A stretch of DNA of 46,205 nucleotides from the sequence record DRR723986_7317; one strand, written 5' to 3'. Under the pieces are notes generated by a model. That model was not told the origin of the DNA, did no database searches, and worked only from the letters and a program-made list of their open reading frames with translations. Both the position numbers and the translations under genes were made by a program. The number at the start of each line of letters is the position of its first letter. Positions within the stretch are counted from its first letter, which is position 1. Below, piece after piece: positions 2,997-41,322 of the stretch.

Positions 2997-3033
2997 GATG
3001 GTATCCTTTGCCCAAAATTCTTGACCGCCCAGG

Positions 3034-3058
3034 CATTGACTGAACGGTTCGGTCAATG
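3034..3058. promoter_or_regulatory. Putative TetR (EmrR-like) operator
   Basis: CATTGACTGAAC-G-GTTCGGTCAATG, 12-bp arms with one mismatch, between emrA and the divergent TetR gene. A core-like copy TGAATGGTTCG lies at 3280-3290. Confidence 0.75.
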
Positions 3059-3383
3059 GCATTTATATGTTCATCTCCTTGGCGAACGCAAGGGTTCCGG
3101 CGAATTTTTTGCAACGCACAAGAGCCCCCTGTTCAACAACCTGGTTGATCGAGACGGCAACAAGACACTTTGGGAGGGGGACGCGAGACGCATCACCTGT
3201 CCGGAAGTCGGATCCTGTCGAAGATATTTTTTAGGGGGCGTTTTGACTTGCAGACACAGCTGGTCTGACCAGGAAAGATTGAATGGTTCGTCCTGTTGGC
3301 CGATAGTGTTGAGATTGACCAACCACCTGCCGAACAGTTGACCTTTGCATTTATGGGAATGCTTTTTGAGAAAAACCGTGTGT

Positions 3384-3412
3384 TTGACAGAATACTAGCG
3401 GTAAACTACTGA
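3384..3412 (+). promoter_or_regulatory. Putative sigma70 promoter of the tetR gene
   Basis: TTGACA-17 nt-TACTGA, ending 25 nt before ATG 3438. Confidence 0.5.
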
Positions 3413-3437
3413 AAGACGGCAGAAATTCGAGATTGCA

Positions 3438-4085
3438 ATGACAACCGAAACACAGGAACTACCGGCGACAGCCGAAGATCCGGCTCAGAAGACCGACAAC
3501 GCCAAGTGCAGGCAGATTCTTGCCGGAGCACGAAAAGTCTTCCGGGCAAAGGGATTCGATGGCGCCAGTATGGAGGTTATCGCCAAGGAAGCCGGCGTTT
3601 CCAAAGGCACGCTCTACGTCTACTTCAGCAGCAAGGAAGCGCTGTTCGAGGCGCTGATTCTGCAAGAACGTTTCAGCCAGGCGGAAATCCTGCGGGAAGC
3701 CCTCGTCAGCAGGGCTGACGTGAAAAGCGATCTGCACCGTATCGGCCGCAGTTATCTGCAGAAAATGGCGAATCCGGAAAAATTGTCGACCCTCCGCATG
3801 GTAGTCGGCGCTGCGGAAAAATTCCCTCAGTTCGGCGTCCTGCTCTACGAAGCCGGTCCATGCCAGGGCCGACGCGACCTTGGTGCCTTCATCCAGGAGC
3901 GGATCGACCGCGGCGAGTTGAAGGACTGCGATGTCGAACTGGCGGCAGGCCAGTTTTTCGACTTGTGTGTGGCGGGCGTTCTAAGGCGCATGCTACTCAA
4001 TGCTGGCCCAAAGCCGAGCGAAGAAGAAATCGAAACCAATGTTGCAGCAGCGGTGAAGGTGTTTCTGGCGGCCTACGCAGCGTGA
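3438..4085 (+). CDS. TetR/AcrR family regulator (EmrR-like), divergent from emrAB
   Basis: HTH ILAGARKVFRAKGFDGASMEVIAKEAGVSKGTLYVYFSSKEALF; C-terminus AVKVFLAAY. Confidence 0.93.
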   Translation: MTTETQELPATAEDPAQKTDNAKCRQILAGARKVFRAKGFDGASMEVIAKEAGVSKGTLYVYFSSKEALFEALILQERFSQAEILREALVSRADVKSDLHRIGRSYLQKMANPEKLSTLRMVVGAAEKFPQFGVLLYEAGPCQGRRDLGAFIQERIDRGELKDCDVELAAGQFFDLCVAGVLRRMLLNAGPKPSEEEIETNVAAAVKVFLAAYAA

Positions 4086-4215
4086 CAGGCCGCGCTGCCT
4101 CCCCCCCCCCTCAAAGTTCACATGAATTCGATTTCCGACCTGACCGGGGCGGACAGACGGGCGTAACTTCCTATATTAAGCGGTAAAGCAATTGCCACCG
4201 CACACTGTAGGTTCC

Positions 4216-5697
4216 ATGACCGCCCGACCGCCCATTTTCCAGTTCGACAATTCCTACGCACGGGACCTGCCCGGCTTTTATGTGGCCTGGGAAGGCGCGA
4301 AGGTGCCAACGCCGCAGCTTGTGGTGTTCAATCGTGAACTTGCAAAAGAACTCGGCCTTGATTCCAACCTTCTGGAAACATCCGAAGGCGCAGAGATCTT
4401 TGCCGGGGTCCGTCAGCCGGACGGCGCATCGCCTCTTGCCCAGGTGTATGCCGGCCACCAGTTTGGCGGCTTCTCGCCACAGCTGGGGGATGGCCGCGCG
4501 CTTCTTCTCGGAGAGATCATCGACAGCACCGGCAATCGGAAGGACATTCAGCTGAAAGGGTCGGGACCGACCCCCTTCTCCCGTGGTGGAGATGGCAAGG
4601 CTGTCGTGGGACCGGTCCTGCGCGAATATATCCTCGGCGAAGCCATGCATGCACTCGGCATCCCGACGACAAGAGCACTGGCAGCCGTAACCACCGGAGA
4701 AACCATCTACCGGGATGGTCCGAAACCGGGCGCAGTGTTGACTCGTGTCGCCGCAAGCCATTTGCGGGTCGGTACCTTCCAGTATTTTGCAGCACGCGGT
4801 GAAACGGACAAAGTCCGCCAGCTCGCCGACTACGCCATTGACCGCCATGATCCGGATCTTGCCGGACAGCCGGACCGCTATATCCGGCTGTTTCGGGGAG
4901 TAGTTGAGCGCCAGGCAGCGCTGGTCGCCAATTGGGTGCTTGTCGGGTTCGTTCACGGTGTCATGAACACCGACAACACGACGATTTCCGGCGAAACAAT
5001 CGACTATGGCCCCTGTGCCTTCATTGACGCCTATGATCCGGCAGCCGTGTTCAGCTCCATCGACCATGGTGGACGATACGCGTTCGGCCGCCAACCCGTC
5101 ATCATGCAATGGAACCTTGCCCGGCTTGCCGAAACCCTGTTGCCCCTGATCCAGCCCGATGATCTGGACAAGGCAGTCGAACTGGCAAGCGCCGAACTTG
5201 GCCGCTTTCCTGATATCTACCGCGCAGCCTGGCTGAACGGGATGCGTGCAAAGCTGGGTCTAGTTGAAGAAACCGCGGAAGATCAGGACCTGTTCGAAAC
5301 GATGCTTTCGGTCCTGCAGGAACAATCGGTCGACTACACGCTCGTCTTCCGGCACCTGAGCGAGGCTGCTGTCGGCGAGCCGCAAAAGCTGCGCGAGCTT
5401 TTTGTCGATCCGACACAGATAGACGGCTGGCTGAAGCGCTGGATGCAACGTCTCGAAAGTGAAGGTAGAGCGCCTGCAGATACCAGGACGGCGATGAACC
5501 TTGTCAATCCGCTCTACATTCCACGGAACCACAAGGTGGAAGAGGCACTCCAGAGCGCGGAAACTGGAGAGTATTTTATGCTCAATGAGTTATTGGATGT
5601 TCTAAAAGCTCCGTATGAAGAACGAACCGGCTTTGAGAGCTATGCCCTTCCTGCCCCGGAGGCGTTTGGTCCCTATCAAACATTCTGTGGAACCTAA
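4216..5697 (+). CDS. selO: Protein adenylyltransferase SelO (YdiU/UPF0061)
   Basis: YAGHQFGGFSPQLGDGRA, QLKGSGPTPFSRGGDG, GFVHGVMNTDN, IDYGP, NPLYIPRNH and C-terminal TFCGT (Cys form). ATG 4216 chosen as start. Confidence 0.95.
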   Translation: MTARPPIFQFDNSYARDLPGFYVAWEGAKVPTPQLVVFNRELAKELGLDSNLLETSEGAEIFAGVRQPDGASPLAQVYAGHQFGGFSPQLGDGRALLLGEIIDSTGNRKDIQLKGSGPTPFSRGGDGKAVVGPVLREYILGEAMHALGIPTTRALAAVTTGETIYRDGPKPGAVLTRVAASHLRVGTFQYFAARGETDKVRQLADYAIDRHDPDLAGQPDRYIRLFRGVVERQAALVANWVLVGFVHGVMNTDNTTISGETIDYGPCAFIDAYDPAAVFSSIDHGGRYAFGRQPVIMQWNLARLAETLLPLIQPDDLDKAVELASAELGRFPDIYRAAWLNGMRAKLGLVEETAEDQDLFETMLSVLQEQSVDYTLVFRHLSEAAVGEPQKLRELFVDPTQIDGWLKRWMQRLESEGRAPADTRTAMNLVNPLYIPRNHKVEEALQSAETGEYFMLNELLDVLKAPYEERTGFESYALPAPEAFGPYQTFCGT

Positions 5698-9756: not shown

Positions 9757-12700
9757 ATGAGCGCGTCACTGATGACATCCAGGCGTTTCGCACCGCTCTT
9801 CTGGACGCAGTTTTTCTCTGCATTCAACGACAATTTCCTGAAAAACGCCCTGGTGTTCCTGGTGTTGTTCCAGGTTGGTGGACACGGTGCAGACGGTGGC
9901 AACACCGGTGTTCTGATAACACTGGCCGGGGCTGTCTTTATCGCGCCCTTCCTGTTTCTGTCCGCACTCGGGGGTGAGCTCGCAGACAAGTTCGACAAGG
10001 CACGGATTGCCCGGGCAACCAAGCTTGCAGAAATTGCAGGCGCAGGCCTGGCCGTGACAGGCATGGCCTTGTCCTCCCTCCCCATCCTCTTTGCCGCGCT
10101 GTTCGTGTTTGGTGCAATGTCTGCCTTGTTCAGCCCGGTCAAATACGGGCTGCTCCCTGATCATCTGCCGGCTTCGAACCTGCCGCGCGCCAATGCCTGG
10201 ATAGAAGCGGGAACTTTTCTGGCAATCCTGGGCGGCACGATTTCCGCCGGCCTTTTGTTCAGCACCGGCGCTCCCACCCTGATCTTTGCCCCAGTGATGA
10301 TAGCCCTGGCTCTCGCATGTTACGGGCTGAGCCGGCAAATTCCCTCCGCACCGGCAGCCGCCCCTCATCTGACGATTGACTGGAACCTTGCGACATCCAC
10401 ATGGTGCGTGGTGAGAGATCTGGCTGCCGATCGCCGTCTCTTCCTAGTAGCCATGATGAATGCCTGGTTCTGGCTCATCGGTGCCATGGTGCTCGCTGTT
10501 CTGCCGCTGATGGTCAAGACGTTCCTGGGCGGTGAAGAAATTGCCGTCACCTATTTCCTGACCGTCTTCGCCGTTTCGATCGGCATCGGGTCGGCAATTG
10601 CCGCCTGGCTTCTGGCTGGCCGCGTCGTCCTTTTGCCGGCTCCCGTCGGAACGCTTCTGCTGGCGCTCTTTTGCCTGGATGCGGCATTTACCCTGGCAGG
10701 CCTGCCGGCAACCGCAACAGCATCTGGCTTGCGCGAGTTCCAGACCCATGAGGGCGTAATCCGTCTCAGCGTCGATATGGCCGGCCTTGCCATTTCCGGA
10801 GCTTTGCTGGTTGTTCCCACCTTCACGGCACTCCAGACCTGGGCGAAACCGCAGGTGCGTGCCCGCCGGATAGCAGCGTCCAACGCCCTTGGCGCTGCCC
10901 TGATGACGGTTGGCGGACTGTTGCTGGCAGGAGCCCAGAAACTTGGATTTTCCGTTCCCGCGATTTTTCTGGCGCTGGCCGGGCTGAACCTTGTCGCAGC
11001 TATCGTGATGCTCAAGATCCTGCCGACCAACCCGATGCGCGATGCAATCTCGATCCTCTATCGCGCCATCTTCCGGATGGAAGTCAAAGGCCTGGAAAAT
11101 CTGGAAAAAGCCGGCGAAGCCCCGATCCTGGCGCTGAACCACGTTAGTTTGCTGGACGCTGGCCTGGCTCTGACCCTGACCGACAAGAAGCCGTCCTTCG
11201 CCATCGACTATGACATTGCCCGGCGCTGGTGGGTCAAACCCTTCCTGCACCTTGCTAATGCCTTGCCGATCAACCCGTCAAAACCCATGGCCACCCGCGC
11301 ACTGATCAAGGTGGTGAACTCCGGCGAGCCGATGGTGATCTTCCCGGAAGGCCGGCTGACTGTCACCGGAAGCCTGATGAAGGTCTACGACGGTGCGGCC
11401 ATGGTGGCCGACAAGACCGGGGCCATGATCGTCCCGATCCGTATCGACGGCCTTGAAAAAACGCCGTTCTCCTACCTGAACCCAAGCCAGATCCGCAAGC
11501 GTCTGTTCCCCAAAGTGAAGGTGACAATCATGGAACCTACCCGCCTGGACCTCGACGACGAACTGAGGGGACGTCAGCGGCGCGCTGCAGCCGGCGCCAA
11601 GCTGTACAGCGTCATGTCCGAACTGATGTTTGAAACCAGCCTGACGGAAGACGTGACGATCCTGGAGAAGGTAATCGCCACGGCAGAAGAATACGGCTAC
11701 GGCAAGCTGGCGGTTGAGGATCCGGTGTCCGGAAAGCTGAATGCAGGCAAACTGCTGACAGGCGTCTCAGTGCTTGGCCGCAAACTGTTGCGGCACACCG
11801 GCGGAGAAGACACCCTCGGCATCATGCTGCCGAATGCCAATGGCGCTGCCGTTACCGTTCTGGCGACCATGTCTGCCGGCAAGGTGCCCGCCATGATCAA
11901 TTTCACCGCCGGTCAGGAAAACATTCTCGCGGCCTGCCGTGCTGCGGATGTTCGTACGCTGTTGTCTTCCCGCGCCTTCGTCAAGCAGGCCCGTCTGGAG
12001 CAACTGGCTACAAACCTGGAAGACCACGTTCGCATCATCTGGCTGGAAGATCTGCGCTCTGAAATCGGCTTGATGGACAAGATCCGCGGCCTTCTGACCA
12101 AAAGTCGCCCCCTGGTACGCACTCAAGCGGACGACACGGCAGTGATCCTGTTCACCTCCGGATCGGAGGGAACACCGAAAGGCGTTGTGCTGACACACAG
12201 GAACATCCTGTCCAATGCCACGCAGACAGCCGCCAGGATCGATTTCACCCCGAACGACAAGGTGTTCAACGTCCTGCCGATGTTCCATTCCTTCGGCCTG
12301 ACGGCGGGGACCATCCTGCCGCTGATATCCGGTGTCCCGGTCTATCTCTATCCCTCACCCCTGCATTACCGGATCGTTCCGGAGTTGATCTACACCTCCA
12401 ATGCGACGATCCTGTTCGGCACCGACACCTTTCTCAACGGGTATGCCCGTGTGGCCCATGCTTACGACTTCCGCTCCCTGCGCTACTGTTTTGCAGGCGC
12501 GGAGCCGGTGAAACCGTCAACCAGGCAGATCTATCAGGAACGCTTCGGCCTGCGTGTTCTGGAAGGATACGGCGTGACCGAGACCGCACCGGTCATCGCG
12601 CTCAACACGCCGATGTACAACCGTCCGGGCACGGTCGGCAAACTGATGCCCGGCATGAAGGCTCGCCTTGAGCCCGTACCTGGTGTGGAAACCGGCGGCA

Positions 12701-13176
12701 GACTCCATGTTTCGGGACCGAACGTGATGGTCGGTTATCTGAAGGCCGAAAATCCCGGCGTCGTCGAACCACTTGTCGACGGCTGGCACGACACCGGCGA
12801 CATTGTCGAGATCGACGACGACGGCTACATCATCATCAAGGGTCGCGCCAAGCGCTTCGCCAAGATTGCAGGCGAGATGGTGTCTCTGTCCGCCGTGGAA
12901 GCCCTGGCGGGTCAGATCTGGCCGCAGCATCTGTCCGCAGTTGCCGCCATCAAGGATGCCCGCAAGGGCGAGAAGCTGGTGCTCGTGACGGAAAACCCGG
13001 ATGCGGACCGCGCAGCCTTTGTTGAAGGCGCCAAAGCCCGAGGCGCACAGGACCTCATGATACCGGCAGAAGTCCGTGTGGTATCCAAGGTTCCTGTCCT
13101 GGGTTCCGGAAAGCTGGACTTCGCAGCGGTTGCAAAACTGGTCAAAGACGGATCTGAACTGGGCGAAGCCGCCTGA
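9757..13176 (+). CDS. aas: Trifunctional LplT-like MFS / lysophospholipid acyltransferase / acyl-ACP synthetase (acyl-[ACP]--phospholipid O-acyltransferase)
   Basis: N-terminal MFS with TQFFSAFNDNFLKNAL; acyltransferase motifs NHVSLLD and FPEG; AMP-binding motifs FTSGSEGTPKG, GYGVTE and DTGD. GGAGGA RBS. Confidence 0.93.
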   Translation: MSASLMTSRRFAPLFWTQFFSAFNDNFLKNALVFLVLFQVGGHGADGGNTGVLITLAGAVFIAPFLFLSALGGELADKFDKARIARATKLAEIAGAGLAVTGMALSSLPILFAALFVFGAMSALFSPVKYGLLPDHLPASNLPRANAWIEAGTFLAILGGTISAGLLFSTGAPTLIFAPVMIALALACYGLSRQIPSAPAAAPHLTIDWNLATSTWCVVRDLAADRRLFLVAMMNAWFWLIGAMVLAVLPLMVKTFLGGEEIAVTYFLTVFAVSIGIGSAIAAWLLAGRVVLLPAPVGTLLLALFCLDAAFTLAGLPATATASGLREFQTHEGVIRLSVDMAGLAISGALLVVPTFTALQTWAKPQVRARRIAASNALGAALMTVGGLLLAGAQKLGFSVPAIFLALAGLNLVAAIVMLKILPTNPMRDAISILYRAIFRMEVKGLENLEKAGEAPILALNHVSLLDAGLALTLTDKKPSFAIDYDIARRWWVKPFLHLANALPINPSKPMATRALIKVVNSGEPMVIFPEGRLTVTGSLMKVYDGAAMVADKTGAMIVPIRIDGLEKTPFSYLNPSQIRKRLFPKVKVTIMEPTRLDLDDELRGRQRRAAAGAKLYSVMSELMFETSLTEDVTILEKVIATAEEYGYGKLAVEDPVSGKLNAGKLLTGVSVLGRKLLRHTGGEDTLGIMLPNANGAAVTVLATMSAGKVPAMINFTAGQENILAACRAADVRTLLSSRAFVKQARLEQLATNLEDHVRIIWLEDLRSEIGLMDKIRGLLTKSRPLVRTQADDTAVILFTSGSEGTPKGVVLTHRNILSNATQTAARIDFTPNDKVFNVLPMFHSFGLTAGTILPLISGVPVYLYPSPLHYRIVPELIYTSNATILFGTDTFLNGYARVAHAYDFRSLRYCFAGAEPVKPSTRQIYQERFGLRVLEGYGVTETAPVIALNTPMYNRPGTVGKLMPGMKARLEPVPGVETGGRLHVSGPNVMVGYLKAENPGVVEPLVDGWHDTGDIVEIDDDGYIIIKGRAKRFAKIAGEMVSLSAVEALAGQIWPQHLSAVAAIKDARKGEKLVLVTENPDADRAAFVEGAKARGAQDLMIPAEVRVVSKVPVLGSGKLDFAAVAKLVKDGSELGEAA

Positions 13177-34062: not shown

Positions 34063-34818
34063 ATGCACGCGCTCTCGAATATGGACCTGGCAGCAGCCGC
34101 CTGGTTTCTGTTTGCCTGGCTCGGTTTCAATTTGCTGATCGATGTCAGTCCGCTGCGTAAAAAGACATTGTCCAGCGCCATGGAAACCTACAGACGCGGC
34201 TGGATGCGTGCCATGAGCCTGCGGGAAGTCCGCATCATGGACACGTCTATCATGTCCGGTCTGCAACAAGGCACCGCCTTCTTCGCGTCAACGTCCCTAC
34301 TGGCGATCGGCGGCGGTTTTGCGCTGCTGGATGCAACGGAACGCATCGTTCAGGTCGCTGGTGACCTGTCCATCCCGGTGGCCGACAGCCGCGCGCTCTG
34401 GGAAATCAAGGTGCTCGCCCTGATGCTGATCTTTGCCTATGGATTTTTCAAATTCGGCTGGGCGTACCGGCTCTTCAATTATGCCAGCATCGTCATGGGC
34501 GCAGTCCCGCAACAAGGTCAGGCACCTGACGAAGTGATCGCGAAAATGGCTGCGCAGGCGGGGGAGCTGGGCGTTCTCGCCGGCCGCCATTTCAATCGCG
34601 GCCAGCGAGCGCTGTTCTTTTCGATCGGCTTCCTTGGGTGGTTCGCCGGGCCTTATGTATTTGCCGCAACCACCCTCGCCGTTCTCCTGGTCCTGCTGCG
34701 TCGTCAGTTCGTTTCCAAGGCCAGAGCCGCCGTGCTCTTGGGGCAATATCCGAACTTGGGATCCGCGGACAAATCCGGCGAATACACCGATACGGGTTCA
34801 TCAAACCCCTTCACCTGA
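34063..34818 (+). CDS. DUF599 family membrane protein
   Basis: RRGWMRAMSLREVRIMD, AFFASTSLLAIGG, FFKFGWAYRLFNY and HFNRGQRALFFS. Confidence 0.88.
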   Translation: MHALSNMDLAAAAWFLFAWLGFNLLIDVSPLRKKTLSSAMETYRRGWMRAMSLREVRIMDTSIMSGLQQGTAFFASTSLLAIGGGFALLDATERIVQVAGDLSIPVADSRALWEIKVLALMLIFAYGFFKFGWAYRLFNYASIVMGAVPQQGQAPDEVIAKMAAQAGELGVLAGRHFNRGQRALFFSIGFLGWFAGPYVFAATTLAVLLVLLRRQFVSKARAAVLLGQYPNLGSADKSGEYTDTGSSNPFT

Positions 34819-35951
34819 TAGCGACCAAAAAGGCCCGACCGGCACCCCATGATATCGGCCAGGGCATCCGAGACCAGAAGCTGGCGCTGCAGGTCCTTTG
34901 CAAGCTCTGCAATACGGGCCGCAAGATTGACCACAGGGCCGACGACCGTGAAGTCCAGCCGCGTTTCGCTGCCGACATTGCCGTAGAAGACATCGCCCGC
35001 ATGAAGGGCAATTCCAACGCTCAGGTCAGGTGTGACCGAACAGGTTCGGGCCGTGTTGATCGCCTCGATCCGCGTCAGCGTTTCACGTGCTGCCATCAGC
35101 GCACGCACCGAGGCGTCCCTGGCTTCCTCTTCGGTCTCATACGGAAAGATCGCCATTACTTCATCGCCAATGAACTTCAGCACCTCGCCACCGTGGGCTT
35201 CGACAGCTGCTGTCATCGCTCCGAAATACTTGTTCAGAAACAATACGATCTTGTCAGCCGGAAGTGTGTTGGAAAGACGCGTGAACCCACGGATGTCGGC
35301 GAAGCTGACAACCGCCTTGATCCACTCGCCTTCTCCACGCCGCGTGGTGCCGTCCAGAACCTTCGAACCTGCCCGCGGGCCGACATAGGTGTCCAGAACG
35401 GTTTCAGCGGTGCGGCGTAGTGTTTTGAGTTCACACACGAGGGCAAGCGGCTGGATCAGCGATTCAAAAACGCCGATATGCGACCCTGAAAATCCGCCTG
35501 GTGTCTTGGTGGCGAAACTCGCAACCTTCACCGAGCCGTCGGAGAACCGCATGGGCAGAGCGATATAGTCGGTATAGCCTTCCTGGCGCAGCTCTGCGGT
35601 AATCGGAAATTCGTCGGCGACAGCCGGCTTCTTGCCGATTTCCACTCGAACGGCCTTCTGCGTTTCATGCACGCGCTTGATCGGGCTTTTCTGGTACTCG
35701 TCCTGCGATTTGTTCTCCGCAGTGTGAAGACGCAATTCCGGCGTCTGGCCGTTGACCCAGATCGAGCTTTCCGCGCGCACGTTCGGATGCACCACCCAGA
35801 TCCCTGTGGTGACACGATCGACCGGAACTTTTCCGGCGCGCAGACGTTTCGCCATCTCAGTGACGATTTCCAGCGTCCCCTTCAATTGGGGCGCATCGCT
35901 GTAGAGCCATTGTACGACGTCTGCCGCAACGATCGGCGCTTCGAGGACCAT
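34704..35951 (-). CDS. Class III adenylate cyclase with N-terminal GAF-like domain
   Basis: FADIRGFT, VLKFIGD, VGIALHAG, GNVG..RLDFTVVGPVVNLAARI and VKG. ATG 35951 has AAAGGA upstream. Confidence 0.9.
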   Translation of the reverse strand: MVLEAPIVAADVVQWLYSDAPQLKGTLEIVTEMAKRLRAGKVPVDRVTTGIWVVHPNVRAESSIWVNGQTPELRLHTAENKSQDEYQKSPIKRVHETQKAVRVEIGKKPAVADEFPITAELRQEGYTDYIALPMRFSDGSVKVASFATKTPGGFSGSHIGVFESLIQPLALVCELKTLRRTAETVLDTYVGPRAGSKVLDGTTRRGEGEWIKAVVSFADIRGFTRLSNTLPADKIVLFLNKYFGAMTAAVEAHGGEVLKFIGDEVMAIFPYETEEEARDASVRALMAARETLTRIEAINTARTCSVTPDLSVGIALHAGDVFYGNVGSETRLDFTVVGPVVNLAARIAELAKDLQRQLLVSDALADIMGCRSGLFGRYQVKGFDEPVSVYSPDLSADPKFGYCPKSTAALALETN

Positions 35952-36063
35952 CAGCCCACGTCCTTTCAAATCCCTGATTGAGCCCAGTATATGGGAACAT
36001 GCTCCGCACAGTAAAAGAGGTTCGATTTCAAAAGTCGCTGGCAGTCGAAAGGGTTTTGCAAAT

Positions 36064-36861
36064 TCATGGACCAGGGAAGAATTCCGTGCTCCTGCCAAGC
36101 ATCCAGTAGACAGCCAGACCAACCCATTCCCGGTAGGCGATATCAAAGCGCCGAAGGCCTTTTGAAGCACCGTCGAAGCCAAGCGACTTGTCCTGCGGTC
36201 CACGCGTACGATAGTCGACCGGATATGCCGTCACCCCGGTCCAACCGGCCTTTTCAAACACTCCCATGGCGCGCGGCATGTGATAGGCCGAAGTGACAAG
36301 AAGCCACTGCTGTCCGGGCTGTGGTTGCACAATATCCTTTGCGTAGACTGCGTTTTGCCAGGTGTTCTGGGACTTGTCTTCCAGAATGACGCGATCGGCA
36401 GAGATGCCGAAATCTCGAAACAGTCGCGCAGCCCCTTCGGCTTCTGTTGCCTGGTCCGACACGATCATGCCCTGCCCACCGGTGTGGATGATCTTCGCCT
36501 CCGGCAGCGCTTTGGCCAGCCGCGCAGTGATGGTGATGCGCTCGGCGGACATTGTCAGGGCGGTGTCGCCCCGCACGCCGGTCACCACCGTGTCCACGGC
36601 ACCACCCAGAACGATGATCCCGTCATAATTCTCCAAAGTGCCGGGACGCTGAAAACGGTCCTCGAGGGGCACAATCAACCAGTTGGCTGCCGGTGAGAAA
36701 GCGCAAACCACCAATCCAAGAAAACCGGCAAAAGTCAGAAACCGTCCACTGCGCCGCCACTTTGACGTAAGGCTGAGCACCAATCCCAAAGCCATCAGAA
36801 CAACGAGAAAATTGGATGGTAGGATCAGAAATCCGCCGATCTTGGATAGGTAAACATACAT
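36064..36861 (-). CDS. YdcF/ElyC (DUF218) family protein
   Basis: Two N-terminal TMs; IIVLGG, ERI, TGG, EDKSQNTWQNA, LVTSAYHMPRA and REWVG. Confidence 0.92.
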   Translation of the reverse strand: MYVYLSKIGGFLILPSNFLVVLMALGLVLSLTSKWRRSGRFLTFAGFLGLVVCAFSPAANWLIVPLEDRFQRPGTLENYDGIIVLGGAVDTVVTGVRGDTALTMSAERITITARLAKALPEAKIIHTGGQGMIVSDQATEAEGAARLFRDFGISADRVILEDKSQNTWQNAVYAKDIVQPQPGQQWLLVTSAYHMPRAMGVFEKAGWTGVTAYPVDYRTRGPQDKSLGFDGASKGLRRFDIAYREWVGLAVYWMLGRSTEFFPGP

Positions 36862-37171
36862 CTGAAAAATCCGAATCGTTGCGGGCCCGATGCGTGACAA
36901 AGATACGGTGAAACCGACAATATTGAGACTTGAAGCTGAAGTGAGCACACATCCTGACAGCTTTGAGCCAAAATGGTTTTCACGGTCTTGGTCCGGATTT
37001 TCCAGTCGTTCTCCCGATCGACAATTTCGACAATATTCGAGAAACAGACGTCCGCCCACGCATTGTCACAAATCTCCAGGTTGCATCATTATTGTCTCTT
37101 TATTTCAACGATTTAATTGATTCGAAAGAAAATTCACCCAACGTTAGATTGCAACCCTAGGAGGATCGATC

Positions 37172-37717
37172 ATGAGCCTGCCGATTGAAGTGGACCAGCA
37201 GCAGCCGGAAATCACCAAGGCTCAGATCCCTCTGGAGACAACCGACTTCTTCAATCAGATCATTCGAGAGCTTAGCGGAGCACTGCAGGAAATTGTCGGA
37301 GTGAACGAGGCGGAGGGGTTCATCGCACTGGTAGCCAACCGCATCGGTGAAAAGATCAATTCCGATTACAAGTCTGCCCTGCATCTTGAACAGATCCCTA
37401 GGCCTTTGCTCGCAGACGTCCTGGCTGACCTGAAACGACGGATCGGCGGCCAGTTCAGTGTCGAATATGAAGACGACAAGGTCTTGATCCTCAAGAACGC
37501 CCGCTGCCCGTTCGGAGATCGCGTCAAGGACCGCCCGTCCCTCTGCATGATGACGACAAACGTCTTCGGAAGAATTGCTGCAGATTGCCATGGCTACGCC
37601 AGGGTCCAGATCGACAGGTCAATTGCCCGCGGTGATACTGACTGTCGTGTTGTCGTCCATCTGGCTCCGACCGTAGAGAACGACGTCAACGGCAAAGAAT
37701 TCTACAGGGTTCGATAG
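37172..37717 (+). CDS. Methanogen output domain 1 (MetOD1; V4R/H-NOX-like) protein
   Basis: LQEIVGVNEAEGFI, DLKRRIGGQF, CPFG..V..RPSLCMMTTNVFGRIAA and IARGD..CRVVVHL. Strong AGGAGG RBS. Confidence 0.82.
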   Translation: MSLPIEVDQQQPEITKAQIPLETTDFFNQIIRELSGALQEIVGVNEAEGFIALVANRIGEKINSDYKSALHLEQIPRPLLADVLADLKRRIGGQFSVEYEDDKVLILKNARCPFGDRVKDRPSLCMMTTNVFGRIAADCHGYARVQIDRSIARGDTDCRVVVHLAPTVENDVNGKEFYRVR

Positions 37718-37719
37718 CC

Positions 37720-38715
37720 GTGCCCAGGTCCACTGCCATCATATCGGCCCTTGTGCAGACCATGCCCCAGCCTATTCTGCTGCTGGACGATTATGGCCGT
37801 GTGGTTCTCGCAAATAAGGCAGCCAAATCTCTTGCCGGAATTGGCGTGGGTGAACAACTTTCGGACAAGGTCAGGGATACAGCGCAGGTGGATGACTACC
37901 TGTCGATGTGCAGGTCTTCAACCACTCCCGTTCCGGTGCGCCTGAAACTTCTGTCCGGATATGAAAGCGTTGCCTTTGGCCACAGATTGTCTGTGCCGGG
38001 CACCGGAATTGATGGAGCCGTTCTTGTCCGCTTCGACGAGAACATGAACCTTTCCAGCAAGTTTGCCGCGCTCAACGCCGATATTTCGTCGCTCAACAAC
38101 AAGATCTTGCATTTCGGCCAGGAGCGGACCGAACTTGAAAACCTGGCACTCACGGATCCGCTTACCGGTATCGCCAACCGCCGCGGGTTCGACCAGGAAC
38201 TGGACAAGGAATACAATCGATCTGCTCGCTATAACCACGACTTCTGCATCTCCCTGATCGACCTGGACCATTTCAAGTCGATCAACGATGCCCATGGCCA
38301 CCAGCTTGGAGATGAAATCCTCGTTCATTTTGCGCAAAGGTGTCTGGAACATCTTCGCCAGACGGATGTCGTTTGCCGTGTGGGTGGTGAAGAATTCGCG
38401 CTGATCCTGCCGGAAACAAATCTGGAGCAAGCAACGATTGTCGTCAGCCGCATGCTTGATCTGTTGAACGCGACACCAATGTTCGCGCGCGGCAAGAGAT
38501 ACGCCTATACCGCAAGCGCGGGCCTGGCGGAAAAAAGGTCAGAAGACACCCCTTCCTCGCTTTATGAACGGGCTGACAGAAATCTTTATTTGGCAAAGGA
38601 AACCGGCAGAGCCCGCCTCATCGCCGGGGAGGCCGTCCCCACGGCAGCGGCCATCGAGACCGGAAAATCCGGCGAATGCCGGAAGTCAGGGCTCATCGAT
38701 TCGCAGCATTTCTGA
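37720..38715 (+). CDS. PAS-like domain plus coiled coil plus GGDEF diguanylate cyclase
   Basis: MPQPILLLDDYGRVVLANKAA (PAS start); LTDPLTGIANRR, DLDHFKSINDAHGH, I-site RQTD, GGEEF and ADRNLYLAK..GR. Starts 2 nt after the MetOD1 stop. Confidence 0.93.
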   Translation: MPRSTAIISALVQTMPQPILLLDDYGRVVLANKAAKSLAGIGVGEQLSDKVRDTAQVDDYLSMCRSSTTPVPVRLKLLSGYESVAFGHRLSVPGTGIDGAVLVRFDENMNLSSKFAALNADISSLNNKILHFGQERTELENLALTDPLTGIANRRGFDQELDKEYNRSARYNHDFCISLIDLDHFKSINDAHGHQLGDEILVHFAQRCLEHLRQTDVVCRVGGEEFALILPETNLEQATIVVSRMLDLLNATPMFARGKRYAYTASAGLAEKRSEDTPSSLYERADRNLYLAKETGRARLIAGEAVPTAAAIETGKSGECRKSGLIDSQHF

Positions 38716-39019
38716 AATTGATCCGAACTTTGGTTATTGCTGACAGGCTTCGATTTGGTCAGGCTTTTCGCCGATCCGACCACCGCGCGCATTCCTTAGT
38801 TGCCTCACTATTTTTAACAATGTGGACGCCGATGCCTCCGCGGGGCCTGACTGACCGCTGATTACGGGTCCTGTAACGCGCCTGTCACATTTTACCGACA
38901 TCTTCCTGCTCAAACCGTTGAAAACGGCGACTTTGGGGCTGTTTTCACCGCACCAATTCGCCATTAGCGGGCACTGGTGATTTTGACAAAGGGTTTATCC
39001 GTGATCGGAGTCACAGGGC

Positions 39020-39034
39020 TGGCACGCTTTCTGA
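39020..39034 (+). promoter_or_regulatory. Possible sigma54 (-24/-12) promoter of the globin-like gene
   Basis: TGGCACG-CTTT-CTGA: the -24 element is perfect, but the -12 reads GA instead of GC. Confidence 0.35.
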
Positions 39035-39080
39035 GTCATCTTGGCGACATCGAAATGAAGGATCAATGAGGGTTAGCCAG

Positions 39081-39485
39081 ATGACACTCTATATGAAACT
39101 AGGCGGTCGCACGGCGATCATGCGGGCAATGCCTCGCCTCAAAGCGAGACTGGAACAGGACCCGTGTTTCGACGTGACCAGCTTTCTGCCGGAATTCGAA
39201 CACTCGGACGATCTGACCGAGTTCCTGATCTTCCTTGCCGGTGGAGCGCCATTTTACGACGGCAAGCCCGTCTGTGAACTGCTGGCGCCGATCTGCACCT
39301 GCAACAACATCTACGAACGCTTCGTGGATCACCTTGTCGCAGTCATCTTCGACGGCGCCCCTGCCCCCGGAGACGAAGAGCACCTGCGTGAGCTCATGTC
39401 CCGACTTCGGCCGCATGTGCTCAACCCCAAGCCGGTTGCACCGGTAATGGTCTATTCCGTCGAACCCGAACCGATCTGCCTCTGA
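39081..39485 (+). CDS. Group I truncated (2/2) globin homologue lacking the proximal HisF8
   Basis: TLYMKLGG..AI, QDP, FL..LAGG..FYDGK and ..HVLN match the trHbN/GlbN pattern. Alternative start at 39066. Confidence 0.78.
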   Translation: MTLYMKLGGRTAIMRAMPRLKARLEQDPCFDVTSFLPEFEHSDDLTEFLIFLAGGAPFYDGKPVCELLAPICTCNNIYERFVDHLVAVIFDGAPAPGDEEHLRELMSRLRPHVLNPKPVAPVMVYSVEPEPICL

Positions 39486-40350: not shown

Positions 40351-41208
40351 TCAATCACCCGGTCCTGTCGTCTCGCCGAAGCGCTTTTCCTGTCGCCCGA
40401 CAAGCAGATACCAAACCAGCATGGCTGCGAAAGGCAGGGACGGCCAGACGAACCACAATGTGGACAAGCCAGAAGTCAGCAGGTTGATCACGAAAAACAG
40501 GCCGATCATGAAAACGCAGCTTCGCACCCGCTTTGGCTGAGCTCTCAACCAACGGCGCGCCTGTTCAAACCCGGAGGCAACCGCCTGGGTGTCTCGTTCC
40601 CATTCCGGTCTTGGAATTTCGGTCTGGCGTCGCTCTGCAGTTCCGTTCGTCTCCTGCCCGGAACGTTTTTCCTCCGGCGCATTGCGACCGCCAATACGCA
40701 CGCAATAGGTTTCAACGGGATCGGTAACGTTCTTGACGTGCTGAGGGCCTAGCGGCTCAAAGCCCAGCGCCATCTTGGTCTTGACCTGGTCATAGACCGA
40801 TTGGGAGAGCATGATTCCACCCCTCGGCGCGATTTCCTGCAAACGGGCAGCAACATTCACACCGTCGCCGTAGATATCCTCGCCCTCGACCATGATGTCG
40901 CCGAGATTGATACCGATGCGAAACTCCATCCTGTTCAGGTCCGGAAGGTCCGCATTGCGAACGGAAAGCTCGTTCTGAATGTCGACGGCGCATTGAACGG
41001 CCTCCATCACCGAGGCGAACTCGATGATGACAGCATCACCCCATGTGTTGACGATACGTCCATTGTGACGCTCGGTCAGCGCAGACATCACCAACCGATA
41101 GGCCTTGAGCCGGTCCAGCGTTCCGTCTTCATCCCGCTCCATGAGCTTGGAATATTGCGCAACGTCTGCGCACATAACTGCCGCCAGACGCCGCTTGACC
41201 CGTTGCAT
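40351..41208 (-). CDS. Class III nucleotide cyclase with C-terminal two-TM domain
   Basis: RRLAAVMCADV..YS, NTWGDA, FRIGINLGD, DIYGDGVNVAARLQ and VKN; C-terminal FFVINLLT...WFVWP. Confidence 0.9.
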   Translation of the reverse strand: MQRVKRRLAAVMCADVAQYSKLMERDEDGTLDRLKAYRLVMSALTERHNGRIVNTWGDAVIIEFASVMEAVQCAVDIQNELSVRNADLPDLNRMEFRIGINLGDIMVEGEDIYGDGVNVAARLQEIAPRGGIMLSQSVYDQVKTKMALGFEPLGPQHVKNVTDPVETYCVRIGGRNAPEEKRSGQETNGTAERRQTEIPRPEWERDTQAVASGFEQARRWLRAQPKRVRSCVFMIGLFFVINLLTSGLSTLWFVWPSLPFAAMLVWYLLVGRQEKRFGETTGPGD

Positions 41209-41322
41209 GCTCTTACCCCGCTTACTCCCGCTTAGGAATGGGAAGGCAAACCGGAAATTGCAAGGGAAAATCCACCGAATTCGCCACCCAGCCCGAAGTT
41301 CGGCCAACTAAGAAAAGCAGTG

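Follow-up and report, generated by a model that had tools for sequence, protein, structure and literature searches.

The window analysed here, a 46,205-nt stretch of DNA from sequence record DRR723986_7317, carries at positions 37172–38715 a pair of closely abutting genes on the + strand, the first encoding a stand-alone protein of the MetOD1 family and the second a diguanylate cyclase. The TAG stop codon of the MetOD1 open reading frame (ORF) ends at position 37717 and is followed by CC and then by the GTG start codon of the cyclase at 37720. Apart from this, the window consists of ordinary chromosomal DNA from a Roseibium-like alphaproteobacterium, genus names here being the source names of database matches and gene context being taken from the annotation of the window. 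An original prediction made from the letters of the sequence had proposed that the pair forms, together with a globin-like gene farther downstream, a module that senses redox state or gases and tunes the level of cyclic di-GMP (c-di-GMP). The features on which it drew, namely the 181-amino-acid protein ending 2 nt before the cyclase GTG and the GGEEF, RxxD, YLSMCRSS, and KFAALNADISSL segments of the cyclase, are all present at the coordinates collected in Table 1. We find that MetOD1 genes of bacteria from many phyla are followed by a gene whose product begins with the same PAS-type domain as this cyclase, and it is this near-obligate pairing that carries our interpretation of the locus.

That the small protein belongs to MetOD1, as had been proposed, is borne out by Pfam PF18546, which it matches with 82.4 bits (E = 4.3e-23; cut-off 23.8) over profile positions 1–141 of 142. 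In a word-indexed search, 2330 homologues some 163–222 amino acids long were obtained; the 120 homologues listed carry PF18546 only, and their identity to the window's protein stays near 50% even for those of Planctomycetota, Acidobacteriota, Nitrospirota, Cyanobacteria, and Burkholderiales. Alignment of 28 diverse homologues shows three invariant cysteines, Cys112, Cys125, and Cys158, within the motifs CPF, LCMMTxNVFG, and CRV, along with invariance of the rest of CPF and LCMMTxNVFG and of several helix residues. This agrees with the three highly conserved cysteines by which the family is characterized in the passages devoted to it by Galperin (2018, PMC5847659). All four cysteines singled out in the original prediction, at positions 112 (CPF), 125 (LCMM), 139 (ADC), and 158 (DCRV), are thus present, but Cys139 is found in the window's protein alone among the 28 aligned sequences. 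No histidine is invariant across the 28 sequences, His71, His140, and His163 of the window's protein being unconserved.

An AlphaFold2 model of MetOD1 (predicted local distance difference test, pLDDT, 83.5) resembles, in Foldseek searches, Bet3/TRAPP subunits (E = 5e-5, template modelling [TM] score up to 0.74) as well as the sensor domains of MopR, PoxR, and DmpR (5kbh, 5kbe, 5fru, and 6iy8; E = 2e-4 to 2e-3, TM 0.54–0.61), and when PF18546 is excluded from the ESM Atlas the nearest named clusters are V4R (PF02830; score 0.90, 176–178 shared features). The fold, as modelled, is V4R/Bet3-like. Pfam V4R itself gave no match at E up to 10, and a profile search of the PDB found no sequence relative (best E 0.24); the kinship with V4R is at the superfamily level only. 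H-NOX and HNOB domains need a proximal histidine as heme ligand, and because MetOD1 has neither a match to Pfam HNOB (PF07700) at E up to 10 nor an invariant histidine, heme-based gas sensing of the H-NOX type is unsupported. Of the V4R/H-NOX-like fold proposed earlier, the V4R/Bet3-like part is supported. Metal, thiol, or redox sensing by MetOD1 is possible. The one published account of the family, which agrees with the V4R kinship, likens MetOD1 to HNOB, on the basis of iterative searches and predicted secondary structure, to V4R, and to ATC hydrolase, and describes a three-cysteine cluster common to MetOD1 and V4R (Galperin 2018, PMC5847659). In DmpR, the zinc ligands Cys151, Glu172, Cys177, and Cys185 are described as adjoining the phenol pocket (PMC7264223), and by analogy with the Cys3Glu zinc site of DmpR, MopR, and PoxR, the Cys3 site of MetOD1 would most likely hold a metal.

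The cyclase matches the Pfam GGDEF profile over positions 1–160 of 161 (E = 4.6e-44) and NCBIfam TIGR00254 with 160.8 bits, and within its RQTD-VVCRV-GGEEF segment the RxxD motif lies five residues before GGEEF, with the metal/substrate motif DxDHFKxxND (here DLDHFKSIND) farther upstream; judged from these motifs, it is a catalytically intact GGDEF enzyme with a product-inhibition (RxxD) site. Its N-terminus matches Pfam PAS_8 weakly (E = 1.7e-6, residues 8–58). Residues 1–135, in turn, align over their full length with the N-termini of kinases encoded downstream of other MetOD1 genes, and an iterated profile scores these N-terminal partner domains at 75–187 bits, compared with at most 23 bits for the PAS domains that lie farther inside these proteins. 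A second profile, for which 51 kinase N-termini were used and the window and both known GGDEF cases were excluded, recovers the window's cyclase with 60.3 bits over residues 9–129 and matches no other ORF of the window. By sequence, this N-terminal PAS-type domain of about 135 amino acids is a distinct family dedicated to MetOD1 neighbours. A library-wide search with the partner profile gave 128,488 matches at E 0.001, mostly generic or multi-PAS proteins, and was not used for the statistics on outputs given below.

The partner domains are only 15–31% identical to that of the window but share the motifs LPEP, YLxxCSRS, LLRL, and FxxLNxxIxxL, and the window's YLSMCRSS and KFAALNADISSL, the former described earlier as part of an unusual PAS-like N-terminus, are the family signatures YLxxCSRS and FxxLNxxIxxL, the latter lying in the exit helix. 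Residues F115, L118, and L125 of this helix are conserved in 70–73 of 78 partner domains; the cysteine of YLxxCSRS, which lies on an F-alpha-like helix, is found in 53 of the 78 and absent from 25. The AlphaFold2 model of the partner domain (pLDDT 90.7) shows a PAS topology that continues into a helix of 27 residues, presumably a signalling helix or coiled coil that joins PAS to GGDEF, and its best Foldseek matches are the PAS domains of FixL, PpsR (Q-PAS1), LOV proteins, and DosP.

Table 1. Features of the MetOD1–cyclase locus and its 3' neighbour, in coordinates of the window
Feature	Position	Strand	Basis
Promoter-like site, TTGTCA-18-CATTAT	37063..37092	+	Consensus scan, 9/12 matches; weak evidence
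Shine-Dalgarno-like AGGAGGA, 5 nt 5' of the MetOD1 ATG	37160..37166	+	Sequence read directly
Stand-alone MetOD1 protein, 181 amino acids, V4R/Bet3-like fold as modelled; proposed sensor subunit	37172..37717	+	PF18546, alignment, AlphaFold2, Foldseek
Diguanylate cyclase, 331 amino acids: partner PAS domain, putative signalling helix, GGDEF domain	37720..38715	+	ORF, Pfam, NCBIfam
MetOD1-partner PAS domain, residues 9-129	37744..38106	+	Leave-out kinase profile, AlphaFold2, Foldseek
YLSMCRSS, cyclase residues 60-67	37897..37920	+	Motif position
Long C-terminal helix of partner domain, residues 107-133	38038..38118	+	DSSP on model
KFAALNADISSL, cyclase residues 114-125	38059..38094	+	Motif position
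GGDEF catalytic domain, residues 143-298	38146..38613	+	Pfam
DLDHFKSIND, residues 181-190	38260..38289	+	Motif position
RQTD I-site (RxxD), residues 213-216	38356..38367	+	Motif position
GGEEF, residues 222-226	38383..38397	+	Motif position
Globin-like gene, 134 amino acids, outside the module	39081..39485	+	Genus-wide presence, synteny

To place the pair in a wider context, one genome per species was scanned, which gave at least 551 loci encoding MetOD1 relatives, and the best 80 of these were examined. In 77 of the 80, representing many phyla, a six-frame profile search located the partner domain immediately 3' of MetOD1 and in the same orientation, beginning 14–226 nt past the end of the MetOD1 match; the profile had been trained on 51 of these 77 loci, and the other 26 are independent matches. 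Two of the three loci without a partner have at most 120 nt of contig left after MetOD1. The co-occurrence of MetOD1 with this PAS variant, for which the original prediction had envisaged a neighbourhood survey, is therefore a general feature of the loci surveyed. At a first pass over the same-strand downstream ORFs, most proved to be histidine kinases whose first ~140 residues carried weak PAS annotation at most. Outputs could be assigned for 67 partners, of which 65 are kinases of the HisKA, HisKA_2/HWE, or HisKA_3 type, many of them hybrids with a receiver domain, and 2 are GGDEF proteins; a further 10 of the 77 were cut by contig ends or undetermined. The two GGDEF partners come from a Roseibium record and, as a GGDEF-EAL protein, from a Francisellaceae genome, and the window is thus a rare cyclase-output variant of the pair.

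The two-gene arrangement is the standard form, and the idea that the locus is a reduced variant of a larger one has to be given up. The B12-binding neighbours on which that idea drew were not seen either, with no B12-binding domain in any of 72 upstream ORFs or in the scanned downstream ORFs, which comprised sets of 63 and 18 (seven loci appear in both with different ORF choices). Upstream neighbours are heterogeneous, the sole recurrent gene among the 72 upstream ORFs being a REC-kinase in ten Nostocales-type loci. In these ten (L019, L020, L023, L047, L055, L061, L065, L068, L070, and L071), a REC-kinase or kinase gene lies directly 5' of MetOD1 on the same strand, at about positions 3000–4900 of the respective locus, and MetOD1 and its partner are set farther apart (84–226 nt), making up a lineage-specific three-gene arrangement. 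Elsewhere among the cyanobacteria, two loci (L050 and L062) come from records labelled as plasmids pSFB and pSFA of one metagenome-assembled genome, both of which carry the MetOD1–partner pair, the partner ORF of pSFB ending after its HisKA domain; in a separate record (L051), a Mutator-family transposase gene lies upstream. Together, the plasmid loci and the transposase hint that the MetOD1–partner cassette may be mobile.

Within the genus, the two genes share one phyletic pattern. MetOD1 occurs in 5 of 72 genomes, and strong full-length matches to the partner domain (E = 6.9e-18 or better) are found in exactly the same five, each adjoining MetOD1, with weak partial PAS matches to the partner profile in four other genomes. 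The locus was compared in 20 genomes, the 5 carriers and 15 without MetOD1. Its backbone, in the order DUF599, class III cyclase, DUF218, globin-like gene, ClpP, class III cyclase, and ACT protein, is kept in all 15 genomes without MetOD1, and the diguanylate cyclase is likewise absent from the locus in all 15. The carriers hold the pair at three slightly different spots in this one backbone: between DUF218 and the globin-like gene in G001, G055, and G068, on the other side of DUF218 in G076, and between DUF218 and ClpP in G049, where the globin-like gene is missing. In G049 (locus L102, 5980–6525 and 6545–7480), both genes contain an in-frame stop, at the position of the invariant Gln39 of MetOD1 and just after GGEEFAILLP in the cyclase; L002 (5085–6210) has the same truncated ORFs, may be the same genome, and was counted once. 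These double stops could be joint pseudogenization or sequencing errors. The other four pairs of the genus are intact, with RxxD-x5-GGEEF retained, and in three other genomes of the genus the cyclase likewise starts at a GTG immediately past the MetOD1 stop. This comparison shows that the pair is gained and lost as a unit, and it possibly decays as one.

Proteins in which MetOD1 is part of a longer chain offer a further view of its place in signalling. Eight proteins of more than 317 amino acids contain the domain. Two (P0186 and P0187) run from MetOD1 through the partner domain to a HisKA_2 kinase, and two others (P0190 and P0191), which have no PAS domain, carry MetOD1 N-terminal to a sigma-54 AAA+ activator with HTH_8, a layout that matches that of MopR and DmpR with MetOD1 replacing V4R and thus puts MetOD1 in the input position. 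In P0192, from Stappia, a truncated piece of MetOD1 is fused to a GGDEF domain. The remaining three, fusions to a P-type ATPase (P0185), a glutamate dehydrogenase (P0188), and an FGGY kinase (P0189), are probable gene-calling artefacts and were set aside.

Because the combination of MetOD1 and PAS domain stays constant while the output varies among kinases, cyclases, and a GGDEF-EAL protein, MetOD1 is most simply read as a sensor subunit acting in trans. With moderate confidence, we propose that the pair is a translationally coupled two-gene sensor cassette in which MetOD1 senses and signals through the dedicated PAS domain to the output. In this scheme, MetOD1 would be the signal-binding subunit, its Cys3 metal site adjoining a ligand pocket, and would dock on the PAS domain with which the product of the next gene begins; by way of the PAS exit helix it would then set the geometry of the dimer and, with it, how active the output domain is. 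That output is mostly a histidine kinase in bacteria, and here it is a GGDEF domain, through which the signal may be converted directly into c-di-GMP. The earlier suggestion that MetOD1 acts in trans on the PAS-like N-terminus of the cyclase is strongly backed by comparative genomics, given both the pairing across phyla and the phyletic pattern that the two genes have in common in the genus.

Physical contact between MetOD1 and the cyclase is inferred; a prediction of the complex between MetOD1 and cyclase residues 1–135, run with neither alignments nor controls, scored 0.02 against a mark of 0.34 and is neutral on this point. Several points weigh against the sensor-cassette proposal. One locus, L014, encodes MetOD1 without a partner despite room downstream and is a true miss, and the survey covers 80 of at least 551 matching loci. 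The fusions P0186 and P0187 each form a cluster of one member and contain a low-complexity linker, so that they may have arisen as frameshift artefacts. The MetOD1 of archaeal response regulators is described as lying C-terminal to the receiver, in the output position (Galperin 2018, PMC5847659), and its input role in bacteria is therefore something that we infer. The putative zinc site of MetOD1 has a cysteine spacing (112, 125, 158) that differs from that in DmpR (151, 177, 185). Finally, the partner PAS domain has a fairly conserved cysteine of its own, resembles cofactor-binding PAS domains, and could itself be the true sensor.

This last point leads to an alternative in which the PAS domain is the real sensor and MetOD1 is an accessory enzyme, a cofactor-delivery protein, or a maturation factor, for example one performing C–S chemistry like ATC hydrolase. 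The best structural matches of the partner domain do bind cofactors (heme in FixL, FAD in NifL, and those of LOV domains), its cysteine sits on the F-alpha-like helix, and the far stronger conservation of MetOD1 across phyla than of the partner domain would suit an enzyme. A Cys cluster is also common to MetOD1 and ATC hydrolase, and a related enzymatic activity has been suggested (Galperin 2018, PMC5847659). We nonetheless consider this alternative unlikely, as MetOD1 serves as the N-terminal input domain of the PAS-less sigma-54 activators, its nearest structural relatives of known function are ligand sensors and not enzymes, and about a third of the partner domains (25 of 78) do without the cysteine.

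A second alternative keeps the two-protein architecture and concerns what MetOD1 would sense. SufR cysteines bind a [4Fe-4S] cluster, and the Cys3 site of MetOD1 might itself be the sensing element, as an Fe-S cluster or a redox-labile metal-thiolate center of the SufR kind that reports oxidants, iron, or NO in place of a small organic ligand. The C-x12-C-x13-C-x18-C spacing of the window's MetOD1 recalls the C-x12-C-x13-C-x14-C in which cyanobacterial SufR ends, hhalign sets Cys112, Cys125, and Cys158 on three SufR cysteines, and one source gives many stand-alone MetOD1 homologues the name "predicted ArsR family transcriptional regulator". The hhalign comparison is insignificant, however, with P = 0.15 against 3 SufR sequences and P = 0.023–0.037 (probability 1–2%) against 21, and Cys-rich alignments are prone to chance matches. 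Moreover, the third cysteine of the SufR-like spacing is Cys139, the one that among the 28 aligned sequences only the window's protein has, and NCBIfam, whose models include SufR, gave no match to MetOD1. A SufR-like site therefore seems to us improbable, and the sensor-subunit proposal made above, with a metal site of the DmpR kind, remains the one that we favor.

The globin-like gene, by comparison, is a bystander. Its ORF spans 39066–39485 (+), and its homologues start at Met6, so that the gene probably begins at 39081 and encodes a protein of 134 amino acids, 365 nt past the cyclase stop. Against Pfam Bac_globin (PF01152), the protein scores 19.5–19.7 bits, under the cut-off of 21. Its invariant residues, in alignment, are MTLYxKLGGR, GGAPxYDGxP..LL.P.C, FVDHL, and Cys77; the proximal histidine of truncated hemoglobins falls, in what we take to be the register of the motif, nine positions past the conserved GGxxxY tyrosine, and at this position the protein has the invariant Leu73. 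Its 64 database homologues are all from Roseibium or Labrenzia where named, and many of them bear the label "Clp protease ClpP", apparently a misannotation that has propagated. The gene is present in 64 of the 72 genus genomes, always beside ClpP. This breadth, set against the 5 of 72 genomes with MetOD1, and a backbone slot that is independent of the pair put the globin-like gene outside the module. The original prediction had itself proposed to drop the globin if it proved unlinked in related genomes, and this is what we find.

A three-gene redox- or gas-sensing unit of MetOD1, cyclase, and His-less globin is accordingly very improbable: the three genes are adjacent on one strand, no terminator-like site was found between cyclase and globin-like gene in a terminator scan (so that transcriptional separation cannot be demonstrated in that way), and the globin-like gene lies directly 3' of the pair in 3 of the 5 carrier genomes, but it keeps its slot in all 15 compared genomes without the pair, has DUF218 between itself and the pair in G076, is missing from G049 despite the pair, has no counterpart among the scanned upstream and downstream neighbours of the loci from other phyla, and would have to be joined to a MetOD1 that lacks the invariant histidine and HNOB match expected of a gas sensor of the H-NOX type.

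The pair can be compared with known systems in which a sensor is encoded beside its effector. Stand-alone H-NOX proteins are encoded beside histidine kinases or diguanylate cyclases, as in HnoX-HnoK and H-NOX-HaCE. Like these, MetOD1 is a small soluble protein encoded in the same operon as a signalling enzyme with kinase or GGDEF output, which it is proposed to control in trans. Unlike H-NOX, it has three invariant cysteines in place of an HNOB match and an invariant histidine, no gas ligand is indicated, and its partner carries a dedicated N-terminal PAS domain. MetOD1 also resembles the V4R sensors of MopR, PoxR, DmpR, and XylR in its predicted fold, in its Cys cluster, and in the AAA+-HTH fusions P0190 and P0191, yet the window's MetOD1 is a separate polypeptide that would act toward a PAS domain, with no AAA+ fusion and a different Cys spacing. 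With the archaeal REC-MetOD1 proteins and the stand-alone methanogen forms (Galperin 2018, PMC5847659; MA2445, PMC11784639), it shares the family PF18546. Stand-alone MetOD1 forms are listed for archaea in Table 3 of the former paper, which describes the domain as a methanogen-specific output domain, and a 2025 Methanosarcina paper calls its function unknown (PMC11784639). The MetOD1 proteins described here differ from these archaeal ones in being bacterial, from many phyla, and in having a transducer encoded downstream whose dedicated PAS domain is their partner.

At the level of the locus itself, the MetOD1 gene is preceded by a 112-nt divergent intergenic region that contains the promoter-like site listed in Table 1. 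RNA-library contigs from three studies span the MetOD1–cyclase pair, although a single transcript or an expression level cannot be deduced from them and DNA carry-over is possible. Contigs of two studies start at 37151 and 37166, one of these starts being an adapter-like loose end, and the contigs upstream of 37151 end at 37054 and 37086; as a weak hint, these starts may reflect a transcript 5' end within the divergent intergenic region. Genes for class III adenylate/guanylate cyclases flank the locus at 34704–36203 (-) and 40351–41307 (-) and belong to the conserved genus backbone, so that the pair is inserted amid genes for nucleotide second-messenger enzymes. The first of these cyclases has about 290 N-terminal residues without a Pfam match. 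Elsewhere in the window, a 1139-amino-acid ORF at 9757–13176 (+) joins major facilitator superfamily transporter, acyltransferase, and AMP-binding domains and looks like an ordinary fusion of the lysophospholipid transporter/acyltransferase/acyl-ACP (acyl carrier protein) synthetase type.

In the literature, we found no description of the bacterial MetOD1–PAS pair, though the supplements of the 2018 paper may list bacterial members (Galperin 2018, PMC5847659). Our analysis adds the GGDEF-output variant, the co-occurrence and co-loss of the two genes in the genus, the sigma-54 fusions, and the exclusion of the globin, thereby removing a misleading lead and flagging the ClpP mislabelling of a genus-wide globin-like protein. 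A bolder possibility, which we regard as rather unlikely, is that stand-alone MetOD1 and its PAS domain form a universal, hitherto unrecognized bacterial plug-in sensor cassette with a reach like that of H-NOX or PAS-heme, wired to kinases, c-di-GMP cyclases, phosphodiesterases, and sigma-54 activators, in which the Cys3 site would be a redox-, iron-, or metal-responsive site related to the cluster-binding end of SufR. If this were true, the window would provide the most direct assay system for the signal, its output being c-di-GMP synthesis by a 331-amino-acid soluble enzyme.

In conclusion, the commonest bacterial form of MetOD1 is a stand-alone protein that is nearly always encoded before a transducer with one particular PAS domain at its start, and this pattern of pairing marks out a sensory unit of two proteins that is open to testing and whose outputs are interchangeable. 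The version in this Roseibium-like window is experimentally the simplest, as both of its proteins are small and soluble and the product, c-di-GMP, lends itself to measurement in vitro with no phosphorelay involved, and this simple readout offers a direct route to the signal and to the role of the Cys3 site.

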